From a virus, in IMG/VR virus record IMGVR_UViG_3300031715_000003, positions 30,225 through 94,224 of that record: a stretch of 64,000 nt of DNA. One strand, given 5' to 3'. The notes beneath the pieces were generated by a model. The model was not told where the DNA came from. It made no database searches and saw nothing but the letters and a program-made list of their open reading frames with translations. Shown here piece by piece: positions 10,906 through 55,986 of this stretch (positions are counted from its first letter, which is position 1; every line of letters begins with the position of its first letter). The translations under genes were made by a program, and so were the position numbers.

Positions 10906-10935
10906 TTGACTTTGTAGGGTATTCCGCCGTAAGAT
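10906..10935 (+). promoter_or_regulatory. Promoter of orphan pentamer-array RNA G
   Basis: TTGACT-N18-TAAGAT directly before array. Confidence 0.7.
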
Positions 10936-11056
10936 GGCCTTGCATCTCTCGTCGGGTCTGCTCCTGGCATGTCATCACGCAGCGCTACACGGCAACGCGA
11001 CGCAACGCAAGGAAATCGCACTGGGGGATAACAAACCAGAAATCGAACTCCCCCAG
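10936..11056 (+). ncRNA. Orphan pentamer-array RNA G (15 units) plus 3' hairpin
   Basis: ggcct tgcat ctctc gtcgg gtctg ctcct ggcat gtcat cacgc agcgc tacac ggcaa cgcga cgcaa cgcaa gg; C at position 3 in all; CTGGGGGA...TCCCCCAG hairpin. Confidence 0.75.
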
Positions 11057-20762: not shown

Positions 20763-20844
20763 CCTTGCGTTGCGATGCTATGCGCCGACGAGATTTGCGG
20801 AGACGAGATACGCCAGGCTCCGACGAGCGCCGACATGCCGTGAC
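20763..20844 (-). ncRNA. Orphan pentamer-array RNA H (16 units)
   Basis: gtcac ggcat gtcgg cgctc gtcgg agcct ggcgt atctc gtctc cgcaa atctc gtcgg cgcat agcat cgcaa cgcaa gg; TGgTATAGT extended -10 at 20854-20862. Confidence 0.75.
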
Positions 20845-20896
20845 TTCCTTACGACTATACCAAGATTATGGTATCTTCTGAAGCAGGAGATTCCTG

Positions 20897-25183: not shown

Positions 25184-27418
25184 ATGGATCCAAACTCCGT
25201 CACGGCGATGTCGCCGGCGCAGGTCCATTCGTGGCCTGTGCCGATGAATCCCCAATCCTATTCGGGCCAAATTTTTACCGACGCCGACGCCGAAGACGCG
25301 TTCCTCAAAGAAGCGCTGGAGCGTTTCAAAACCGCCGAAGACGCCGAACGCAAGCTCCGCGAAGAGATGGAGGAAGACCATCGCTTTGCCTGCGGAACCC
25401 AGTGGCCCCAAACCATCCAAGCACAGCGCCATGCCCAGGATCGACCCACCCTCTCGATCAACCGCGTCCCTGAATTCGTCTCCCACGCCGTAAATAACCT
25501 TCGTCAGAACCGGCCGATGATCAAGATCGTCCCAGTGGGGGACGGTGCCACCACCGACATCGCCAACCTTCGGCAGGGGCTGGTCCGCCACATCCAGCAG
25601 AAATCCAAGGCGGAGACAGTTTTTGACGAAACGGCCCACATGATGTTCGAAATGGGGTTGTCGTGGATCCGCGTGGTGGCCGATTGGGCCAATCCTGAAT
25701 CTTTCGATCAGGAACTCTTTATCCGCTGGATCCGCAATCCCTTTACGGTCTACTGGGACCCGTTCTGCACGCAGCCGGACTGGTCCGACATGAAGTGGCT
25801 CTTCATCATCGAGGACCTTACCAAAGCGGAATTCCAGACACGCTTTGGGGAAGACGCACTAGCGATGAGTTGGCCCACCACGGAAAGCGGAAACTCCACT
25901 CCCTCGTGGTTCCCGGAGGGCAAGATTCGGATTGCCGAGTACTTCCGGGTCAAGATCGTGGAGGACAAGCTCTGCCAGCTTGAGGACAAGACCACGCGGC
26001 TATTCTCGGAACTCCCCAAAGGCATGTATTTCGTGGCCGAGGTAGAGAACGGCAAACCCGGCGAACTCGGACTTTTTGAAGAAGAGACGAAAGCGTATGT
26101 CGGCAAAGCTCGCGAGACCAATGTACCAGAGGTCTGGCACTACCTGATGAGCGCCCGCAAGGTGCTGTCGAAGACGAGGTGGTTAGGGTCGCGCATTCCC
26201 GTTCTCCCCTGCATTGGACACCAGACGGAATTTGAAGGCGAACTCAGCGTGGAGGGCATGGTGCGGTGGGCACGGGAACCGCAGCGCATGTACAACTACA
26301 TGTACTCCTCCTTTGTGGAAGCGGTGGCGCTTACGCCCAAGGCGCCGTTCATCGCGGAGGTGGATCAGATCCCGGATGGCAATGCAGAAGAGTGGGAGAA
26401 GGCGAACCAAAAGCCGGTTGCCGTCCTGCGATACAAGGCCAGGTCAGAAGGCGGCCAACTTCTTCCTCCCCCCATGCGGCAACCCGCCACTCCCGATATC
26501 GCGGCGTTTAGCGCCGGGCTGCAGATGTCGGATGCCAACCTCAAAGCCGTCTTCCGAATCTACGATGCTTCGCTTGGACAGCGGGGCCCCCAGGAGTCTG
26601 GGCTTGCGATCAATGCCCGCAAGGTGGAGTCCGATACCGGGATTTTCAACTGGGGCGATAACTTCCTGAGGTGCCTCCACAACGTCGGCTGGGTCCTGAA
26701 TGAACTCCTACCGTTCTACTACAACAGCCCGGGGAAGGTGATCCGCATCCTCCAGGATGATGACTCCCGCAAGGAAGTCGTAATGAACCAAGCATTCCTC
26801 GAACAGGGACAGAAAAGGATTTACGATCTCGAACAACAGGGGGAGTACGGAGTAGATATTTCGACCGGGCCATCCGTCCAGACGCTGCGGCAGGAGAAGG
26901 TCAAGGGCATGATCGAGTTTTTCCAACTGTACCCTGCAGGTCTCCAAGCCTGCGCCCATGTCCTGGTAAAAGAATTCGATTTCCCTGGAGCGGAGAAGAT
27001 TTCGGCGCAACTCGAGAAGCTTCTCCCACCGGCCCTGCAGACGCCCGATCCGGACTCCCCGCCTGATCCCAATCAACTTCAATCGCAGATCGGGATACTG
27101 ACGCAGCAGAACCAGCAACTATTGGCGGCCCTCAAGGAAGCGAGCGACAAATTCAACCTCGAAGCCATGAAGCAGTTGCACGCCGATTGGCGCAACCAGC
27201 AGACCCAGGAAGTGCAATTGGCACTGGGGCTGAGCCGCACGGGCTCCGAGGAAATCAAGTTTTTATTCGACCGGATGTTCAGCGAGATGGAGCAACTGCG
27301 CCAGCAAGTGGCGGCAGGCTCTCCGGGAACTCCGGCGACGCCGGGAGTGAACTCCCCTCCGGCGACTCCGACTTTACCTCCAACGGCGGGAGGGCAGACG
27401 CCGTCCGTGGGTCCCTGA
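25184..27418 (+). CDS. Portal protein, P22 gp1-like
   Basis: QWP...RPTLSINR...EPQRMYNY...PKAPF...ESGLAINAR...ISTGPS. Confidence 0.93.
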   Translation: MDPNSVTAMSPAQVHSWPVPMNPQSYSGQIFTDADAEDAFLKEALERFKTAEDAERKLREEMEEDHRFACGTQWPQTIQAQRHAQDRPTLSINRVPEFVSHAVNNLRQNRPMIKIVPVGDGATTDIANLRQGLVRHIQQKSKAETVFDETAHMMFEMGLSWIRVVADWANPESFDQELFIRWIRNPFTVYWDPFCTQPDWSDMKWLFIIEDLTKAEFQTRFGEDALAMSWPTTESGNSTPSWFPEGKIRIAEYFRVKIVEDKLCQLEDKTTRLFSELPKGMYFVAEVENGKPGELGLFEEETKAYVGKARETNVPEVWHYLMSARKVLSKTRWLGSRIPVLPCIGHQTEFEGELSVEGMVRWAREPQRMYNYMYSSFVEAVALTPKAPFIAEVDQIPDGNAEEWEKANQKPVAVLRYKARSEGGQLLPPPMRQPATPDIAAFSAGLQMSDANLKAVFRIYDASLGQRGPQESGLAINARKVESDTGIFNWGDNFLRCLHNVGWVLNELLPFYYNSPGKVIRILQDDDSRKEVVMNQAFLEQGQKRIYDLEQQGEYGVDISTGPSVQTLRQEKVKGMIEFFQLYPAGLQACAHVLVKEFDFPGAEKISAQLEKLLPPALQTPDPDSPPDPNQLQSQIGILTQQNQQLLAALKEASDKFNLEAMKQLHADWRNQQTQEVQLALGLSRTGSEEIKFLFDRMFSEMEQLRQQVAAGSPGTPATPGVNSPPATPTLPPTAGGQTPSVGP

Positions 27419-35880: not shown

Positions 35881-37556
35881 TGGGTGCCGGACCAATCCTC
35901 AGCGCCTACACGTTGCGCGCACCGTACTCCCCCACGCCAATCGTGGACCCTTCAACGGGTGTCGCCACGCCCCAGATGGACCTCTGGCTGCGAAACATCC
36001 AGCCCACTCTCCAGCAACTCTCGGGAGTCAGCGCCATTCAGTACGGTGTCCGAGGAAATGGAAAAGCTGACGACACCGCTGCAATCCAGGCCACCATCAA
36101 CCAAGTGGCGGCTAACGGTGGGGGTGTAGCGCTGCTGCCGGTCGGCACATTCAATATCGGGACCGTCACGTTTCCATCGGGCGACATCCCCATCACGCTG
36201 GCGGGCCAGGGGCCGGCGAGCATTATCTTGCGAGGCAAGCAAACCGGAGCCGGCCAGGGACTCCTCGACATCAGCGGTTCGAACGTCACGTTCCAGGACT
36301 TCCTGATCGACGGTGCCACCACGATGCCGCAGGGGCTGCATTACAACCAGGACTTTTTGGGCGTTGGCGGTAACGATCCAATGGCGTCCTCCCTCACGCA
36401 AAACACCTCCATCTGGGTCCACAGCAATGTCAGCGGGTTCCGCATGGACCGAGTGACGATTCAGCACACGGGGGGATATTCAGTTCTGCTAGATGCACGG
36501 TCCGGAACGATAGAACTGGTCGATATCGTGCAGTGTTGGTTCCAAAACAACCGGCCGTTCCTATTCGGCACCATCGGCAACCCCGCGATTTACGGATCGT
36601 GGGGAGGCGGCATTCTGGCTCATGGAGCCGGGCAGACTGCTGGATCGGGAGTGGTCCAAACCCTCCTGGTGGCGCTCTGCCAGTTCCAACGCAACACGGG
36701 CAATTGCCTGTGGAGCCATCTCTACGGGCTGAATGAACTGCATCAAAACTTTCGTTTCATCGGCAATCACTTTCTGGATTGCGGGCTGGACGGAATAGAA
36801 TTCGGGGGGGTTGACGGCGGATCCGCCAGCGCCAATGTCTTCAGGCGTGTGGGCTACATCTGCCTGGACGACACTTCACAATCGACTCCCCGATGGGACC
36901 CGGTCGCACCCGCCACCGCCATAGATTCGAGTGGGGTCGTCAAGGCCGTTGCGCTCACGGGGAACTCGTTCACATCGGTGAACGGCGGCGCGATGGATCT
37001 AGACGGCCATGGCCAGAGCGCCATTGTGGGGAATGTCGTGCGGGTGCCGTATTTTGGTGAGCCAGAATATGATGAAGACCAGATTCCACTGACTGGTCCG
37101 ACCAACAGCGGATCGGCCAGCTATGGCGTCAACATGAACAACACGAGCCAGACCGCTGAGGGTGCTGCAAATGTCGAAATCGTGGGGAATTCGTTCATCA
37201 ACTTGGCGGGCGGATCGATTCGCCTCTATGCGGCGCGGTTCTGTGCGGCTAAGGCCAACCTGATCGTGTCGCCGGATGCGCCTGCGAATCCGCCCGTAGC
37301 GCTCGGACCCGTGGGGCCGAATCCCAATCAGCGATGCCACGATAACCGCGTTGCCCACAACGACGTCAGCTACGCCCCAGCTTCGTCGGAGCCAGTGGTG
37401 TTCGAGGACGACACCATTTCGATGTTCATGTCGACCGAGAAGAATTATGTGTTCGGCAACCAGCCGATAACGCCATCGGGGTCCAACGCCTTCGAGTTTC
37501 AGCCAAGTTCGCATTCGGGAAGCCCCACTTACGCTCAAACCGTGTGGTTCCCATGA
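35880..37556 (+). CDS. Tailspike/needle with pectate-lyase-like beta-helix
   Basis: PIVDPSTG...W N-terminus; YGVRGNGKADDTAAIQ; parallel beta-helix repeats; no signal peptide. Confidence 0.8.
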   Translation: MGAGPILSAYTLRAPYSPTPIVDPSTGVATPQMDLWLRNIQPTLQQLSGVSAIQYGVRGNGKADDTAAIQATINQVAANGGGVALLPVGTFNIGTVTFPSGDIPITLAGQGPASIILRGKQTGAGQGLLDISGSNVTFQDFLIDGATTMPQGLHYNQDFLGVGGNDPMASSLTQNTSIWVHSNVSGFRMDRVTIQHTGGYSVLLDARSGTIELVDIVQCWFQNNRPFLFGTIGNPAIYGSWGGGILAHGAGQTAGSGVVQTLLVALCQFQRNTGNCLWSHLYGLNELHQNFRFIGNHFLDCGLDGIEFGGVDGGSASANVFRRVGYICLDDTSQSTPRWDPVAPATAIDSSGVVKAVALTGNSFTSVNGGAMDLDGHGQSAIVGNVVRVPYFGEPEYDEDQIPLTGPTNSGSASYGVNMNNTSQTAEGAANVEIVGNSFINLAGGSIRLYAARFCAAKANLIVSPDAPANPPVALGPVGPNPNQRCHDNRVAHNDVSYAPASSEPVVFEDDTISMFMSTEKNYVFGNQPITPSGSNAFEFQPSSHSGSPTYAQTVWFP

Positions 37557-49282: not shown

Positions 49283-49552
49283 ATGCCAAAGATCGAAAGC
49301 GAAGACGTGACCGTGCTCTGTATGGTAGTGAGAAAGCCGTTTCAGCCGGGCACGAAGATAACGGTTGAGGGAGCGGACGGGGAGGATCTGCGAGTCGCGC
49401 ACATACTCCTAGATATCCCGAAGCGGGGGCTGGAGGAGTGGTCAGACAAAGCATTTATGCAGGTTTGCGGCTCTGGATTGGTCCCGCTGTACGATTACCT
49501 GCGTGTAACACCCGGCATTTTCAAGGAAGGACCGTTGGTACCGGCCCCGTAA
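49283..49552 (+). CDS. Hypothetical protein
   Basis: AGGAGG SD. Confidence 0.65.
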   Translation: MPKIESEDVTVLCMVVRKPFQPGTKITVEGADGEDLRVAHILLDIPKRGLEEWSDKAFMQVCGSGLVPLYDYLRVTPGIFKEGPLVPAP

Positions 49553-49696
49553 GTTCTATGCAGGTAACGAAATGATGAGAATATGCCGCAAGTGTGAGCG
49601 GATCATTCGGGGAGATGATATCTTCCACCGATGCGCTCCCCTCTGGCTGTGGCCTGTCATCTTACTCATGGCCCTCCCCATCGCGGCGTTCGTCTT

Positions 49697-50137
49697 ATGC
49701 ACACTGGGAAAATAACGAAGACGGCGGGCTGCTATTTGGAAATCGCTGGGTCCTCGTACACATGCCAGCAGTGCGCTTTCTTTCGCCCCAAGGCCGACTG
49801 CCTCCTGTTCCCTCCCAACGAAAAGGTCAACGGCCCGAGCGGCGGTTGCAATTATTGGGTTCCCCAGCCGACGAAAGCGGTGGTGGTTCCAGAGATCCGA
49901 ACTCTCAACAAATCGACGCTTGGGTACAGCGAAAATCTCCACGGTTTCACCTGCGGAAGATGCTTACATTTCTCACCGCGGAGGCGGATGTGCGAGCGCG
50001 TCAGCGGCTCGATCGCGGCGGGCGGTTGCTGCAATTTATGGCAACGAGACCAACAGCGCGGTAGCCTCACGGATGCGGAGCTAAAAGCCCACCTCGCTTC
50101 TCCGCGGCATACGCTCGTGCAGATCGCGCACTCCTAA
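49697..50137 (+). CDS. Tandem HiPIP-like Cys-motif protein
   Basis: Two copies of Y...CxxCxxF...C...GGCxxW. Confidence 0.6.
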   Translation: MHTGKITKTAGCYLEIAGSSYTCQQCAFFRPKADCLLFPPNEKVNGPSGGCNYWVPQPTKAVVVPEIRTLNKSTLGYSENLHGFTCGRCLHFSPRRRMCERVSGSIAAGGCCNLWQRDQQRGSLTDAELKAHLASPRHTLVQIAHS

Positions 50138-50147
50138 ATAAAACTCC

Positions 50148-50184
50148 TTGACTTAACCGTAACGCCGTGTTACCGTAGAACGGT
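50148..50184 (+). promoter_or_regulatory. Promoter and operator of the Cas7-like module
   Basis: TTGACT-N17-TACCGT; ACCGT-AGA-ACGGT palindrome over -10 and start; leaderless ATG at 50185. Confidence 0.65.
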
Positions 50185-50313
50185 ATGAAGGTGAAGGCCA
50201 GTACGGTCAAGGTTAAACTGGACGGGATAAAGTGCGGACACTGTGGGCATGCCTGGAAACCGCGCACAGAAAGTGGCGCGAAGAAGTGCCCACGATGCCA
50301 GCACAAGCTTTGA
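50185..50313 (+). CDS. 42-aa zinc-ribbon protein (not in ORF track)
   Basis: KCGHCGHAWKPR...KKCPRCQ. Confidence 0.75.
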   Translation: MKVKASTVKVKLDGIKCGHCGHAWKPRTESGAKKCPRCQHKL

Positions 50314-50314
50314 G

Positions 50315-50404
50315 GGCGACGCAACGCGTGTCAACGCGCTACAATGCGCGGCGGCTCACGTCTGCGTAAGGCGAGTCTGGTCTGCTCCCGGCATCGCAAC
50401 GTAA
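50315..50404 (+). ncRNA. Pentamer array A (18 units)
   Basis: ggcga cgcaa cgcgt gtcaa ... ggcat cgcaa cgtaa then AGGAG SD; pyrimidine at position 3 in all, C in 16. Confidence 0.8.
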
Positions 50405-50416
50405 AGGAGAAATGGA

Positions 50417-50980
50417 ATGATTTCGGCAAAATGCCATCTTGAATCGATTTCGCAGTACTCCCAGAGCAAAGCTCATCGAGTTCCGCGCAATCAAAATGAA
50501 TCTTATGACCAATGGGAAGAGCGGACGTGGCGCGAACGCCTGCATGTGTCCGAGGATGGCCACATTTTTATTCCTCCCACTGCCATCAAAAACGCGCTCT
50601 CGGAGGCGGCTCAGTACCTCTCGATGAAGATTCCGGGGAAGCGCAACGCCACCTACACCAAGCGCTTCGTCTCGGGGGTTCTGGTGGCCGATCCCATAAC
50701 GCTGCCGATCACGGTCGATGAGGTCAAGTGCGAATGGCTTTTCCTGCCGGCCGATGGGAAGCGCGGTTCTGGAACGCGCGTCAACAAATGCCTGCCCCTG
50801 ATTGATCGGTGGTCGGGCGATGTACAGGTATTCATTCTGGACGACGAGATCAGCAAGGAGGTCTTCGAGAAGCACATGGATGTTGCGGGATCCTTGATCG
50901 GAGTTGGCCGGTTCCGCCCCTCGAAGAATGGATACTACGGTCGGTTCAAAGCTACCGTTAGGTCCTGGGAGTCGCAGTGA
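50417..50980 (+). CDS. Stand-alone Cas7/RAMP-like protein
   Basis: N-terminal strand CHLESISQY, FIPPTAIKNALSEAA (cf. RAMP IPgSslKGalR), C-terminal Gly loop GSLIGVGRFRPSKNGYYGRF; AAGGAG SD. Confidence 0.7.
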   Translation: MISAKCHLESISQYSQSKAHRVPRNQNESYDQWEERTWRERLHVSEDGHIFIPPTAIKNALSEAAQYLSMKIPGKRNATYTKRFVSGVLVADPITLPITVDEVKCEWLFLPADGKRGSGTRVNKCLPLIDRWSGDVQVFILDDEISKEVFEKHMDVAGSLIGVGRFRPSKNGYYGRFKATVRSWESQ

Positions 50981-50986
50981 AATGAT

Positions 50987-51134
50987 CTCGCGGCACGTCT
51001 TGGCGAGTCGCCTTCTGGCCAGTCCAGGCGCATCATGCTCTCGTCGTGGCCTGTCACCGCCTGTCGCTCAGCTAGGCACGTCTTGTCATGGCAGGTCTGT
51101 TCGCGTCTAGTCTTGGCACCGCATCGCATCTCAA
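50987..51134 (+). ncRNA. Pentamer array B (about 29 units, two phase slips)
   Basis: ggcac gtctt ggcga gtcgc ... ggcac cgcat cgcat ctcaa GGAG. Confidence 0.8.
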
Positions 51135-51144
51135 GGAGAATAAA

Positions 51145-51348
51145 ATGGCAAAGGAATCTAAGATATCCAAACTCATCGAGGAACTAGCAGAAGAAATGGC
51201 AGAGGATCTGGTGAAGAGTTTGACGATGGAGTTTAAAAAGATTTCGCCGGGAGCGAACAGGCTGGCAAATGGAAAGCGTAGGAGCACGCCAGAGGCTTCT
51301 GGCCCAAAGAAACCTGGTTGGAGCATAAGGGGTACGAAGAGGAAATGA
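51145..51348 (+). CDS. 67-aa hypothetical protein in Cas7-like module
   Basis: AAGGAGAATAAAATG; acidic helix plus basic tail. Confidence 0.7.
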   Translation: MAKESKISKLIEELAEEMAEDLVKSLTMEFKKISPGANRLANGKRRSTPEASGPKKPGWSIRGTKRK

Positions 51349-51349
51349 T

Positions 51350-51439
51350 TTCATGGCTCGTCCGGGCCCGGCATGGCAACGCTTGTCCTGGCAGGACTCG
51401 GCTCGTCTAGTCGTATCGTGGTATGGCACGGCATCGCAA
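51350..51439 (+). ncRNA. Pentamer array C (18 units)
   Basis: ttcat ggctc gtccg ggccc ggcat ggcaa cgctt gtcct ggcag gactc ggctc gtcta gtcgt atcgt ggtat ggcac ggcat cgcaa. Confidence 0.85.
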
Positions 51440-51449
51440 GGAGAATAAA

Positions 51450-51971
51450 ATGGCAGTAGAAACTAAAAACGGTAAAGATCCAAAGCGTCCTATTGGTACG
51501 ATCTCGATCGACACACGGGTCGTTTACGATCGTCTCAAGGCGACGCAGATCGGGGAGACCGTACTGTATGCCGATTTGACCAAGCTAATCGGTCGCGATA
51601 TCCGCGGCGTGGCTTCATGGGTACTCCAGAGCGCACGGCGCAAAGCCCTGCACGACGATCAACTGGTGTTCGGATCGGTTCGCAACGAGGGAGTACGGCG
51701 TCTGGCAGACACGGAGATCGTCGACACCGGGCACGACGCCATCACTCAGATCCACAGGCGGTCGGTTCGGTCCCTCAGGAAGCTGGCCTCAGTCCAGGAT
51801 TTCAGCGCTCTCCCCCCGCAAGATAAAGTGCGACACAATGCCTACGCTTCGCTGCTCTCCATATCGGCGCATGCCACCCGGGATAAGCAGGTCAAGAAGA
51901 TCGAACAAGCAGTGGAAAAGTCTCAGGCAGCTCTGGCGGTCCAGAGGACGCTGGACGCGCTCAAGGAATAA
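51450..51971 (+). CDS. Basic 173-aa protein, winged-helix-like N-terminus, partner of Cas7-like gene
   Basis: GETVLYADLTKLIGRD...SARR...SVRNEGVRRL; same 16-nt RBS as 51145. Confidence 0.75.
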   Translation: MAVETKNGKDPKRPIGTISIDTRVVYDRLKATQIGETVLYADLTKLIGRDIRGVASWVLQSARRKALHDDQLVFGSVRNEGVRRLADTEIVDTGHDAITQIHRRSVRSLRKLASVQDFSALPPQDKVRHNAYASLLSISAHATRDKQVKKIEQAVEKSQAALAVQRTLDALKE

Positions 51972-51974
51972 CAT

Positions 51975-52149
51975 GGCTCGTCGTGGCGAGTCTTCGCCTA
52001 GCAGGTCTTGTCATGACGAATCACCGCACGTCCATGCGAGTCCAGTCCGCGCTCCTCGATGCATATCGTGGCGATTCGTGGCGGCTCCTAGCATCGCCTG
52101 TCGGTGCACGGCATCTCCCGGCGAGTCCTGTCCCGGCAACGCAACGCAA
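51975..52149 (+). ncRNA. Pentamer array D (35 units)
   Basis: C at position 3 in 35/35 units; GTC 10, GGC 7, CGC 6; ends ggcaa cgcaa cgcaa gg. Confidence 0.85.
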
Positions 52150-52177
52150 GGTATTAATGTGGTCTTTTATAACGTTC

Positions 52178-52277
52178 TTCTCGGCGTGTCTGGTCAGAGC
52201 ACGGCAGGTCTGCGCCCGGCATTGCTCGTCTGCGCGCCACGTGGCGTATCAACTCCGCTCTAAGCGCGGCATCGCAA
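52178..52277 (+). ncRNA. Pentamer array E (20 units)
   Basis: C at position 3 in 20/20; ends ggcat cgcaa gg; AT-rich linkers both sides. Confidence 0.85.
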
Positions 52278-52322
52278 GGTTCTTTATCTCCCCAAAACTA
52301 CAGTAAAATGGTCTACATATTC

Positions 52323-52399
52323 AGCGTGGCGCTGGGCCCGTCATGGCTTAGCGAGACAACGCAAGGCTGGTCTGGTCTCGGCAACGCCGGGCAACGCAT
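52323..52399 (+). ncRNA. Pentamer array F (2 + 13 units)
   Basis: ggccc gtcat ggctt agcga gacaa cgcaa ggctg gtctg gtctc ggcaa cgccg ggcaa cgcat. Confidence 0.75.
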
Positions 52400-52516
52400 C
52401 GGATTTAAACGAAGACTGGCATTTATGTTGTAGAATCGTAGTCGTAAGCGTAAGGCCAAAGGTAGGGGAAGCGTCGTGAGACGCACTCCCCGCCATCCCG
52501 CAAGGGAGGAGGCACG

Positions 52517-54943
52517 TTGAGGAGAGCACTAACCATCATTGCGCTCCTGCTGGGTGCGGCAGTGCACGCCGCCGCCCAGTACGGCCTCGCGCCAGCCTTT
52601 GATCAACAATTTTTCAGCAACACCGGCTTGCCGCTCATCGGCGGCCAAATCTACACCTGCTACGCCGGAACCTCCTGCCCCGGCAATCCGCTGGCCAGCT
52701 ATACCGATTCCACCGGCGCAGTCCAGAACTCCAATCCCGTGGTCCTCGATGGATTCGGCCGCGCCTCCATCTGGCTAACGTGCAGTCTCGCGTACAAGCT
52801 CGTTCTTCAAGATGCCATGGGGAATACGCTCGTCACCTCCGACAACCAAACTTGCGGATCCGGTGGTGGCGGAGGCGGTGGAACCAACTACTGGACTCTG
52901 TCGGGGAGCACGATCTACAACAACAACGGTGGTGGCACGGAACCTCCGGGCGGCGCAGGCAACGTTCAGGTAGGGGCGGATTTCATCGCGGGCGGAAACC
53001 TGTGGGCCGGACAATCGCTCCGGATTGCCTCCAGTACCGCGCCTAACCACTTCATATTGCGGGCCAACAGCGGCATGGCTAGTGATGTGACGTGGCGGTG
53101 GGCCCAGCAGGACGCTATGGGGTGCTTGGCCAGCGACGGAATGGGCAACCTCAGCTTTCAGGCGTGCGGGGCAGGCTTGACCCCTGGAGGCTCAAATGGA
53201 AACGTGCAGTTCAACAGCAACGGGTATTTTGGGGGGAATTCCAACTTCAACTGGAACAATACGAGCCAACTCCTTACTGTCGTTGCGCAGACCAGTAGCG
53301 TAGCGGGGATTGCGGTTGGAACCGGCTACGTCCAGGCCGATGCGGGATTCCTAGCCACGCCGTCTACAGCGACGCAATACGATGTGGTCAACGCTCCTGG
53401 CGGCGGGATGTACGCGCTGTCGTTTACGGCCGCCAATTACATCCAAAGCGGCTTCGGAGCAACTAACCCGACAATGACGCCCGGCGACTCACCGCATCCC
53501 GGCGCACTCTATTGGAACACGACCTCTGGGGCGGAGCAGGTCTTCAATGGAACTGCATGGGTGTCGCTAGGGGGCGGTAGCGGATCCGCTGGAGGCTCCA
53601 ACACCGATGTGCAATTCAACAGTTCTGGAGCCCTCGGGGGAAGTGGAAATTTCACATGGAACAACGGTAGTCGGCTCCTCACCGTAACGTCGGCATCCTC
53701 TGGCGTGGCGGGGATCGCGGTCGGAACTGGCTACATTCAGGCGGATGCGGGCTTCCTTGCGACGCCCGGAACCGCCATGGCCTATGATTCGATTCAAGCC
53801 CCTGGCGGTGGATTCTATGGGAAATCCTTCACGGCCCTGAATTATATCCAGACTGGAAACGGCACTGCCATTCCGACGCTTACCTCTGGAGATAGCCCGA
53901 ACGCAGGGTGGATGTACTACAACACGACGAACGCGTGCGAGGAACTCTATAGCGGGACCGCATGGAGTTGTCTGGGGATGGCTGGCTCCAGTTCCCCGGG
54001 GGCTCCCAACAGTTCCGTGCAGTTCAATAACTCTGGTGCCTTAGGAGGTTCGGCCAACCTGATGTGGAACAACGGCAGCCAACTCCTGACCGTTACGGCA
54101 GCGTCTTCCTCAGTCGCTGGAATCGCGGTTGCTACCGGATTTGTTCAGGCAGATGAAGGATTTATCGCAACCTCCGGAACGGGCACCCAGTACAACGTCA
54201 TTCAGGCTCCTGGCGGAGGAATGGCCGCGAAGTCTTTCACGGCCGCGAACTACATCCAGACGGGGAGCGGCACCGTAAACCCCACCGCCACCACGGGCGA
54301 TACCTTCAACCCGGGCGCGCTTTACTACAATACAGCGAACGCCTGCGAAACCCTCTACAACGGGTCGGCTTGGGCCTGCATAGGGGGAGGATCAGGGGGA
54401 GGGCCATTCCCGTCGACATACTTTATCCCCGCAGCCAACTGCGTAACCGGGGCTCCTGGGTCTGGATGGTCGATAAGCTCCGGAGGATCGGCTTCCTGCA
54501 GGTCTGGTGTCCATAATGTAGGCGGCTACATCGCCATCAGCGATACGTCCTCAACGTTTGCCAGTTTTCAAGTAGAGATCCCGCTTGATTGGGACACGGG
54601 AGTCAACCCCTACATTCGGTTCCAGCTCGCTTCGACCGATACGGCGAGCGGCCACACCATCATCCCGCAGATTCAGGTCGCCTGCTACAAGGGAGACGGG
54701 ACCACTACGGATGATGTAGTCGCGAACGCAGCGCACTCCTCGAGCACCGTTACCCTGAACGGGAACGCGAACGCATTCTGGGCGACTTCCAACGTACAGA
54801 TGAACTCCACCGATGTTACGGGTTGTGTCGGTGGCTCCCTCATGCAGGTCACGGTCGGTCGCGCTACCGACACGGCGACCAGCGCGGAATTCTACGGCGC
54901 CACCATTACGTTCCCGCGATCGATCATGGTGCAACCGGACTGA
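52517..54943 (+). CDS. Tail fibre/spike with virion-attachment domain, three internal repeats and Sec signal peptide
   Basis: Leader ending AAA-Q; QFF..TG.PL.GG.IYT..AGT...PLASYTD.TG...SNPVVLD..GRASIWL; 3 x GGSN..VQFN...GIAV.TG..QAD.GF. Confidence 0.85.
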   Translation: MRRALTIIALLLGAAVHAAAQYGLAPAFDQQFFSNTGLPLIGGQIYTCYAGTSCPGNPLASYTDSTGAVQNSNPVVLDGFGRASIWLTCSLAYKLVLQDAMGNTLVTSDNQTCGSGGGGGGGTNYWTLSGSTIYNNNGGGTEPPGGAGNVQVGADFIAGGNLWAGQSLRIASSTAPNHFILRANSGMASDVTWRWAQQDAMGCLASDGMGNLSFQACGAGLTPGGSNGNVQFNSNGYFGGNSNFNWNNTSQLLTVVAQTSSVAGIAVGTGYVQADAGFLATPSTATQYDVVNAPGGGMYALSFTAANYIQSGFGATNPTMTPGDSPHPGALYWNTTSGAEQVFNGTAWVSLGGGSGSAGGSNTDVQFNSSGALGGSGNFTWNNGSRLLTVTSASSGVAGIAVGTGYIQADAGFLATPGTAMAYDSIQAPGGGFYGKSFTALNYIQTGNGTAIPTLTSGDSPNAGWMYYNTTNACEELYSGTAWSCLGMAGSSSPGAPNSSVQFNNSGALGGSANLMWNNGSQLLTVTAASSSVAGIAVATGFVQADEGFIATSGTGTQYNVIQAPGGGMAAKSFTAANYIQTGSGTVNPTATTGDTFNPGALYYNTANACETLYNGSAWACIGGGSGGGPFPSTYFIPAANCVTGAPGSGWSISSGGSASCRSGVHNVGGYIAISDTSSTFASFQVEIPLDWDTGVNPYIRFQLASTDTASGHTIIPQIQVACYKGDGTTTDDVVANAAHSSSTVTLNGNANAFWATSNVQMNSTDVTGCVGGSLMQVTVGRATDTATSAEFYGATITFPRSIMVQPD

Positions 54944-55986
54944 TGCAGATGAGGAGATCCATTACCCTAGCGTTGGCAGTTGGGCTTGCGGCCTACGCCC
55001 AGTACGTCCCTGTCCCATTTACCACCACCAGTTGTCTGGCGATCTCCCCGCCTGGCCCTGGCTGCGGGACCGGAACCAACACTATATTCCTGACATCCGC
55101 CAGCGGCACCTGGACGGTTCCGACCTGCTGGAACAATTCCAACAACTCGATTGAGGGAATTGGAGGAGGAGGAGGAGGTAATGGCGGTGGCTCTCCCGGC
55201 GTAGCGGGCGGAGGAGGAGGTGGGGAGTACGCCAAAGTCGTCAACCTCGCGCTCACGATAGGAGCCTCCATTCCCTACACGGTGGGGGCAGGAGGTGCCG
55301 GGGGAAACTCTGCCGGCAGCAACGGGGCCAACGGAGGCGCGACGTCTTTCAACACTACGACCCTCGTGGCACACGGCGGGGGCGGCGCCACCTCGTCTGC
55401 AGCGGGAGCAGGAGGAACTGGCGGCACCGGAACCACACTGCATAACGGCGGCTCCGGGGGAACAGCCGGGACCCACAGCGCTTTCTCCGGCGGCGGAGGC
55501 GCGGGCGGACCCAACGGTACGGGAGCGACAGGTGGCCCCTCCAATACTGTCGCCGTAGAAGCTGGAGCTGGCGGTGGAGGCGGTTCGGGAGGAGGGATGG
55601 CCGGCGGCGCTCCGTCCGCGAATAATGGAGGGGCTGGTGGTGCCAACTTCTCTGGAAGTGTGGCAGGTGGGGCTGGAGAGACCAGCGGCGGAGCGGCTGG
55701 AAACGGAGGGGGCGACGTCAACGGGGCCTCTGGGGGCGGTGGAGGCGGAGCCACATTTCTGATGCCTGGCAAGGGAGGATCTGGAAGAGAATGGGGCGCG
55801 GCCGGATCAGGCGGTGGCGGAGGCGGCGGCGGCGGAGCCAATTTCTTCGGGTCAGCCACTGGCGGCTCTGGCGGGTGTTTCGGCGGCGGAGGCGGATCCG
55901 GTTCATACGATAACGTGGACGGGGTTATGCCCGCCCCGGGAGGACCAGGCGCGCCTGGTTTGCTCGTAATAAAGTACACGAATTAG
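54943..55986 (+). CDS. Glycine-rich tail-associated protein with signal peptide
   Basis: Leader ending AYA-Q; GTWTVP...IGGGGGG...YTVGAGG...GLLVIKY. Confidence 0.8.
   Translation: MQMRRSITLALAVGLAAYAQYVPVPFTTTSCLAISPPGPGCGTGTNTIFLTSASGTWTVPTCWNNSNNSIEGIGGGGGGNGGGSPGVAGGGGGGEYAKVVNLALTIGASIPYTVGAGGAGGNSAGSNGANGGATSFNTTTLVAHGGGGATSSAAGAGGTGGTGTTLHNGGSGGTAGTHSAFSGGGGAGGPNGTGATGGPSNTVAVEAGAGGGGGSGGGMAGGAPSANNGGAGGANFSGSVAGGAGETSGGAAGNGGGDVNGASGGGGGGATFLMPGKGGSGREWGAAGSGGGGGGGGGANFFGSATGGSGGCFGGGGGSGSYDNVDGVMPAPGGPGAPGLLVIKYTN

Follow-up and report, generated by a model that had tools for sequence, protein, structure and literature searches.

The window analysed here closes a virus record of 94,224 bp, taking up its final 64 kb, and includes portal, head-closure and tail genes. 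It carries a compact locus (50185–52400) that is recognizable from its sequence as a VIPR system, with a Vipr RAMP protein, a vap-like accessory gene and predicted genes for pentamer guides. Two of these guides, C and F, each lie directly upstream of a gene that they nearly match when two bases are read and every third is skipped, and the match of array C is more than chance. We estimate at roughly 60% the probability that guides C and F are aimed at rival relatives of this phage and that the phage keeps, next to each guide, a recoded version of the targeted gene that would resist it. Their code has already been published; a useful twist is the linkage to recoded targets together with probable escape by codon-family switching.

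VIPR, a CRISPR-like RNA-guided gene silencer, was first described in 2026 in three preprints (bioRxiv 10.64898/2026.04.26.720920, 10.64898/2026.04.26.720927, 10.64898/2026.10.15.759431). According to these preprints, a small RAMP protein polymerises on a vrRNA of 9–16 pentamers, each GGY plus NN, that ends in a constant 3' tail; the protomer hides GGY and presents NN, which pairs with double-stranded DNA and passes over every third base of the target. The base left unread in natural targets is the wobble position of a codon, the "1 nt skip rule" (bioRxiv 10.64898/2026.04.26.720920). Competing phages and satellites are silenced in this way, and certain guides aim at rival VIPR loci; vrRNAs directed against rival VIPR systems, with lower scores against the carrier itself, have been published (bioRxiv 10.64898/2026.10.15.759431). 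Natural targets were called at a match of 80%, self-targeting at 80% or more was absent, and Vipr filaments can pair with RNA too. The code of two paired bases and one skipped that had been proposed in an earlier, sequence-only reading of this DNA is correct and amounts to a rediscovery of the 1-nt skip rule from the letters; since it was already in print in 2026, the code itself is no discovery.

The VIPR locus and its arrays

Eight arrays of in-phase pentamers of the form nn-N-[G/T]-C were called in the window, six of them in one locus and two solo; shuffled genomes yielded 0–1 pentamer runs. An extra run of eight units (37207–37246) inside a coding region was treated as noise. The features, all on the plus strand except array H, are as follows.

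50185–50313, + strand: ORF of 42 aa (translation) with a zinc-ribbon-like CxxC...CxxC pattern, opening the locus just before array A
50313–50397, + strand: array A, 17 units, ending in a CGCAA handle and the Shine-Dalgarno sequence of vipr
50417–50980, + strand: vipr gene, encoding a 187-aa RAMP/Cas7-like protein (profile, model and fold search)
50985–51132, + strand: array B, two in-phase runs of 10 and 14 units with a register break between them
51145–51348, + strand: Lys/Glu-rich ORF of 67 aa between arrays B and C (no match in a family search)
51348–51437, + strand: array C, 17–18 pentamers nn-N[G/T]C from the array caller, in-phase run 51353–51437
51353–51422, + strand: variable guide part of array C, 14 units, of which the 12 units used in the sequence-only reading are 51353–51412
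51423–51441, + strand: conserved 3' handle of array C, three units of GGC/GGC/CGC type plus AAGG
51450–51971, + strand: vap-like accessory gene, 173 aa, with a winged-helix-like N-terminal half (homologues beside vipr)
51561–51601, + strand: near-target of guide C, codons 38–51 of the phage's own vap-like gene, with the 12-codon stretch at 51567–51601
51973–52147, + strand: array D, 35 in-phase units, probably more than one guide
52176–52275, + strand: array E, 20 units
52328–52397, + strand: array F, 14 units
52598–52632, + strand: near-target of guide F, codons 28–39 of the ORF 52517–54943, in a tail-fibre-like N-terminal motif
10934–11008, + strand: solo array G, 15 units, with the 3' handle of the locus arrays
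20767–20846, - strand: solo array H, 16 units, with the 3' handle of the locus arrays

Over the 159 units, position 3 of the scaffold is C in 98%, position 2 is G in 55% or T in 40%, and the nn pair is variable. The canonical GGY scaffold is found in only 42 of the 159 units. The preprints state, however, that the scaffold may be "a related consensus" and name YNNNG-type repeats, so a scaffold other than GGY does not exclude membership in VIPR. The 3' end is nearly identical in arrays A–E, G and H (about three units plus AAGG), array F having a variant of it, ...CGCATCGG. In arrays A, B and C this end runs into the Shine-Dalgarno sequence of the following ORF. Array D is more than twice the published length of a vrRNA and may comprise two or three staggered or processed guides. 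In a distant relative (L002) the 67-aa ORF is absent from this position, and the order there is vipr, array and then vap directly.

A tRNA search of the window returned none, repeat-spacer arrays of CRISPR type were not observed, and the locus ORFs scanned included no cas gene. A TRAP-like leader-RNA regulator was considered as another identity for the arrays and rejected: the neighbouring protein is a RAMP/Vipr protein and not one of TRAP type, the spacers carry decodable information, and a scan of the window against Rfam at the gathering threshold returned no family.

The Vipr protein and the reading of the scaffold

In a single-sequence search, the 187-aa ORF gave a weak match to PDB 36pp, "SUSP1 Vipr protein". 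A profile built from 46 homologues matched PDB 36pp_D (SUSP1 Vipr) with E=4e-12, residues 14–183 being aligned with residues 31–191. The AF2 model of the protein has a pLDDT of 97.2, and Foldseek, whose library covered entries released until April 2026, placed type VII Cas7 and Csm3 nearest among solved folds (E=5e-8). A G-loop-like motif, GxGRFRP...GRF, is conserved in the family, which comprises 1198 representatives at E<=0.001. Judging by its profile and predicted fold, the product of the ORF 50417–50980 is a Vipr protein.

The profile alignment places R165 and L126 opposite the SUSP1 residues D177 and R138, which read G1 and G2, respectively; SUSP1 W178 corresponds to F166, and R179, which holds the pyrimidine, to the invariant R167. 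The changes at R165 and L126, together with the retention of R167, fit a scaffold in which only C is strict, and we infer that the two are linked.

Arrays flank vipr in most of the 62 related viral loci. In many of these relatives (L004–L065) the scaffold is nn-[C/G]-G-C, and since GC is a palindrome the caller reports arrays on both strands with a 3-nt offset; the strand of an array must there be taken from the orientation of vipr and from the tail. The 3' ends of the relatives' arrays vary by clade (AAGG, AAGACAAGG or AACG).

Match of guide C to the vap-like gene

The first 12 dinucleotides of array C are exactly those listed in the sequence-only reading. Reverse-complemented and spaced as NN-skip-NN, they match 51567–51601 at 20 of 24 bases and 8 of 12 dinucleotides, as had been claimed. 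The codon register holds as well: position 51567 lies 117 nt, or 39 codons, beyond the start of the ORF 51450–51971, so the skipped base is the wobble base. The match weakens with length, to 20 of 28 (71%) over the 14 variable units and 22 of 36 over the 18-unit run. The handle of array C overlaps the Shine-Dalgarno sequence of the same ORF. RNA folding of array C gave a stability not above that of its own shuffles (z=+1.2), which is the expectation for a guide held by protein.

A homologue of the 173-aa ORF adjoins vipr in 38 of 49 dereplicated related loci, and the ORF is therefore regarded as the vap-type gene of this clade. Its AF2 model has the secondary-structure order H-E-H-H-E-E, as in winged helices; Foldseek matches of the model to winged-helix regulators are weak (E>=0.015), and a Pfam search with the ORF returned no significant family. 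The footprint of guide C corresponds to helix 2 and the following turn of the model, which is the most conserved stretch of the vap family, with Y40, L43, L46, I47 and D50 invariant in six homologues.

Over the 14 variable units, guide C matches the vap genes of three relatives (L059, L064 and L038) better than the phage's own copy, with 23/28 (82%) each and in frame, and that of L039 with 22/28. Against the family consensus the guide scores 23/28 and the own copy 20/28, and 6 of 37 homologues outscore the own copy on guide C. The L059/L064/L038-type best matches come from relatives that are only 28–31% identical in vap. On average over relatives, the own copy is no further away than the guide (17.2/28 and 17.0/28, respectively), and by this measure "escape" is indistinguishable from ordinary divergence.

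The eight of 28 read bases at which the own vap copy differs from the guide represent three amino-acid changes and two Leu codon-family switches, in line with the earlier suggestion that two of the mismatches can be synonymous Leu codons. The own residues L39, A41 and T44 are the changed ones: guide unit 13 reads AC. at position 39, where relatives mostly have T (four of five homologues); at position 41 the guide reads GA., and D or E is present in many relatives; at position 44 it reads AG., and most relatives have S. Among database homologues that have D and S at positions 41 and 44, the closest at the protein level is P0003 (57% identical in vap); P0002 is 63% identical.

Exact gapped patterns of guide C had no match in viral contigs (12 units and 9 units) or in genome contigs (10 units). 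The perfect target for which a search with the 12-unit pattern had been recommended was thus absent from the viral contigs scanned, the best relative reaching 82%, and neither the relatives' loci nor the gapped-pattern scans yielded a sequence matching guide C or F perfectly or at >90%. Searches for vap homologues returned none in viral contigs (single protein), genome contigs or INPHARED phages (tblastn); an alignment search of metagenome and viral contigs recovered only the 40%-identical L001 and L002/L003.

Guide F and scans across related loci

The best hit of array F (52598–52632) lies in the next gene downstream, in frame and at gap 1, and scores 17/20, or 19/24 over 12 units. At the amino-acid level the agreement is 8/8; the one doubly mismatched codon is the Ser codon AGC where the guide reads TC., a synonymous difference. 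In footprints C and F together, three of the four mismatched Leu/Ser codons are synonymous family switches, for which we estimate a chance of about 1e-3. The exact gapped pattern of guide F (10 units) had no match in viral contigs, and among 35 distant tail-fibre loci none scored above the own copy (at most 16/24). The closest homologues of the tail N-terminus are P0158 and P0167.

When 118 guides were cross-scanned between loci against 1.07 million positions (both strands), 32 hit diagonals were obtained at gap 1, 12 at gap 0 and 14 at gap 2. Shuffled guides at gap 1 gave a mean of 20.6 and a maximum of 27 in 25 trials, and this mean exceeds the values for real guides at gap 0 or gap 2. In dinucleotide composition the guides therefore look like codon positions 1 and 2 of coding DNA, which inflates gap-1 scores and makes such a control necessary. 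Taken with the near-targets of C and F, the cross-scan lends statistical support to a 1-nt skip aligned with the wobble base, as far as sequence comparison can indicate.

Comparison of the window's arrays with L001 and L002, and of the arrays of L001 and L002 with their own loci, gave nothing above noise. An array of the metagenomic VIPR locus L001 (3128–3267) matches this phage's portal gene (25184–27418) at 25802–25831 with 18/20, at gap 1, on the coding strand and in frame (p=1.6e-9, borderline after correction for the search space). Three guides of other viral VIPR loci match, with 17/20 at gap 1, the vipr gene of a locus other than their own (L035:1013–1067 in L019 at ~5341, L027:6640–6829 in L036 at ~5381, and L044:4868–4957 in L050 at ~2896); these fit the published guides that target vipr.

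Statistical support for the near-targets

The binomial estimate of 3e-9 per position in the sequence-only reading was reproduced (p = 3.3e-9). Its figure of 4e-4 over the window, stated before correction for the eight arrays and the chosen sub-window, is too low once such choices are counted: shuffled unit orders equalled the real score in 2 of 60 trials when segments of any length were compared with the whole window, which corresponds to a family-wise rate of about 3%. With segment length left free, a wrong-gap control (gap 2) also produced an equally strong match elsewhere in the window (21/26, p=3.8e-9). Equal scores from shuffles or other gaps, which that reading had named as evidence against itself, thus do occur over the whole window; within 49500–55000, by contrast, local hits appear at gap 1 only, as the in-frame near-targets of C and F. 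In this interval shuffles equalled the real score in 2 of 300 trials and never yielded a pair of arrays as good as C and F. Among the 61 twelve-unit sub-windows of all arrays, compared on both strands at gaps 0–2, the array C hit is the sole one with at least 20/24.

When the arrays are decoded into amino acids and set against all six reading frames of the 94-kb genome, only two of them rise above noise, C with 10/12 and F with 8/8 and 10/12, and the maximum over shuffled arrays reaches the value of C or of F in 1 of 100 shuffles each. No full-length guide matches the window at 80% or more at gap 1, and array A gave no self hit above noise against its own genome in base-level or amino-acid-level scans.

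Probable targets and function of the guides

Of the two functions put forward in the sequence-only reading, targeting of the homologous gene in a competitor gives the best fit: relatives reach 23/28 where the own copy reaches 20/28, and the own copy departs from the family consensus exactly at positions that the guide reads. The published vrRNAs against rival VIPR systems, with their lower self scores, offer a precedent. According to the model that we favour, the scaffold trinucleotide N-[G/T]-C would be held by Vipr and the two variable bases would pair with DNA, skipping every third. Guide C, with its 14 variable units and handle, would be aimed at the helix-2 motif of vap in related, competing VIPR phages; once bound, it would keep the rival's VIPR/tail operon from being transcribed. 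The own copy, differing at 8 of 28 read bases, falls below the published 80% cut-off; over 12 units the self match is 83%, above that cut-off, so that some self binding may occur. Guide F would relate likewise to the N-terminal motif of the downstream tail-fibre-like gene, and adjacency would keep each guide and its resistant allele together. The guides are presumably expressed and silence rivals, and the differences in the own copies would have been selected as guide-linked self-immunity. Immunity of the code to synonymous escape, also claimed earlier, was overstated, as three of the mismatched codons in the own genes are Leu (CTN/TTR) or Ser (AGY/TCN) switches.

The second proposed function, autoregulation in cis, is unlikely in our assessment. 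It would have the Vipr-guide filament bind weakly to the phage's own DNA (or mRNA) at 51561–51601 and 52598–52632 and thereby tune or time the expression of vap and the tail gene. Several features agree with it: both near-targets are on the coding strand of the gene directly downstream of the guide, 130–200 nt away, the handle of array C overlaps a Shine-Dalgarno sequence, the 12-unit self match is above the published cut-off, and Vipr filaments are able to pair with RNA. However, no self near-match of at least 17/20 was found in the 48 other related loci, which argues against a conserved cis-regulatory design. The synonymous family switches and the better-matching relatives are also more in keeping with avoidance than with use, self-targeting at 80% or more is absent from the published systems, and silencing of its own tail gene would probably be costly to the phage.

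Rather improbable is a third explanation, by which the guide was once derived from, or aimed at, this gene lineage and has drifted since, leaving a match without function. The self match is indeed partial, a perfect target was not recovered in the gapped-pattern scans, and on average the relatives stand about as far from the guide as from the own copy. Against drift stand the intact scaffold and handle of array C and the 23/28 agreement of guide C with the family consensus, which is what selection for hitting a conserved motif would produce, and the pattern is the same in two separate guides. Chance coincidence, with sub-window, gap and strand picked post hoc, has very little left in its favour: the gap-2 control, the whole-window rate of about 3% and the fall to 22/36 over the full run of array C are outweighed by the local and amino-acid nulls, by the hit being in frame and falling on the motif that the cognate vap family conserves best, by the match of guide C to that motif in several independent relatives and by the enrichment of the mismatches in synonymous codon-family switches.

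A tentative step beyond rival targeting, which we consider somewhat more likely to fail than to hold, is that each guide and its resistant allele form a linked weapon-antidote pair with immunity achieved in part by Leu/Ser(/Arg) codon-family switching, the sole synonymous way out under a code that skips the wobble base. The guides lie immediately upstream of the own recoded target genes, so recombination could not separate the members of such a pair. Were this true, VIPR would be a kin-exclusion device among close relatives, and the locus would show how an "escape-proof" wobble-skipping code gets escaped.

The locus is of interest on several further counts. A divergent VIPR clade that combines a relaxed N-[G/T]-C scaffold with matching substitutions at the G-reading residues offers a natural test of scaffold reading. 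Its carrier is a VIPR-positive phage with two guides, each directly upstream of a nearly matched gene, and its own copies of both genes are altered at bases that the guides read. The Leu and Ser family switches, finally, show concretely how a code described in the literature as resistant to synonymous change can be circumvented.

Comparison with known systems

The closest known systems appear to be the type II VIPR of SUSP1 and that of a Pseudomonas fulva prophage (bioRxiv 10.64898/2026.04.26.720920, 10.64898/2026.04.26.720927). Like these, the locus described here is minimal and phage-borne, with a RAMP protein of ~20 kDa homologous to SUSP1 Vipr and one accessory gene of putative DNA-binding type. 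Its arrays are likewise tandem pentamers in which a conserved trinucleotide alternates with two variable bases and which close with a constant 3' end, seen here at the DNA level only; the one-base skip falls on the wobble position, and there is no full-length self target at 80% or more. The scaffold differs, being N-[G/T]-C instead of GGY. In place of a pseudoknot tail, the arrays end in a short handle, CGCAAGG, which also serves the following gene as its ribosome-binding site. In the protein, the SUSP1 residues that read G1 and G2 (D177 and R138) align with R165 and L126, whereas R179 is kept (R167).

The vrRNAs directed against rival VIPR systems, including the solo vrRNAs of VIPR-null SUSP1-like phages (bioRxiv 10.64898/2026.10.15.759431), resemble guides C and F in matching genes of competitors' VIPR loci, in having wobble-aligned footprints and in scoring lower against self than against rivals. 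In contrast to those cases, the carrier here is VIPR-positive and has its own copy of the targeted gene beside the guide, and this copy contains Leu/Ser codon-family switches. Homology between carrier and target was excluded in the published cases. Another difference is the target, which here is a vap-type (and a tail-fibre) gene and neither vipr nor a vrRNA.

Class 1 CRISPR-Cas systems, with Cas7 and crRNA, share the RAMP fold (type VII Cas7 and Csm3 at E=5e-8 in Foldseek), the binding of one protomer per repeat period of the guide and the periodic flipped bases. In the VIPR locus, however, the period is 5 nt with 2 paired bases, compared with 6 nt and 5 paired bases in class 1 systems, and the guide is written directly in the genome.
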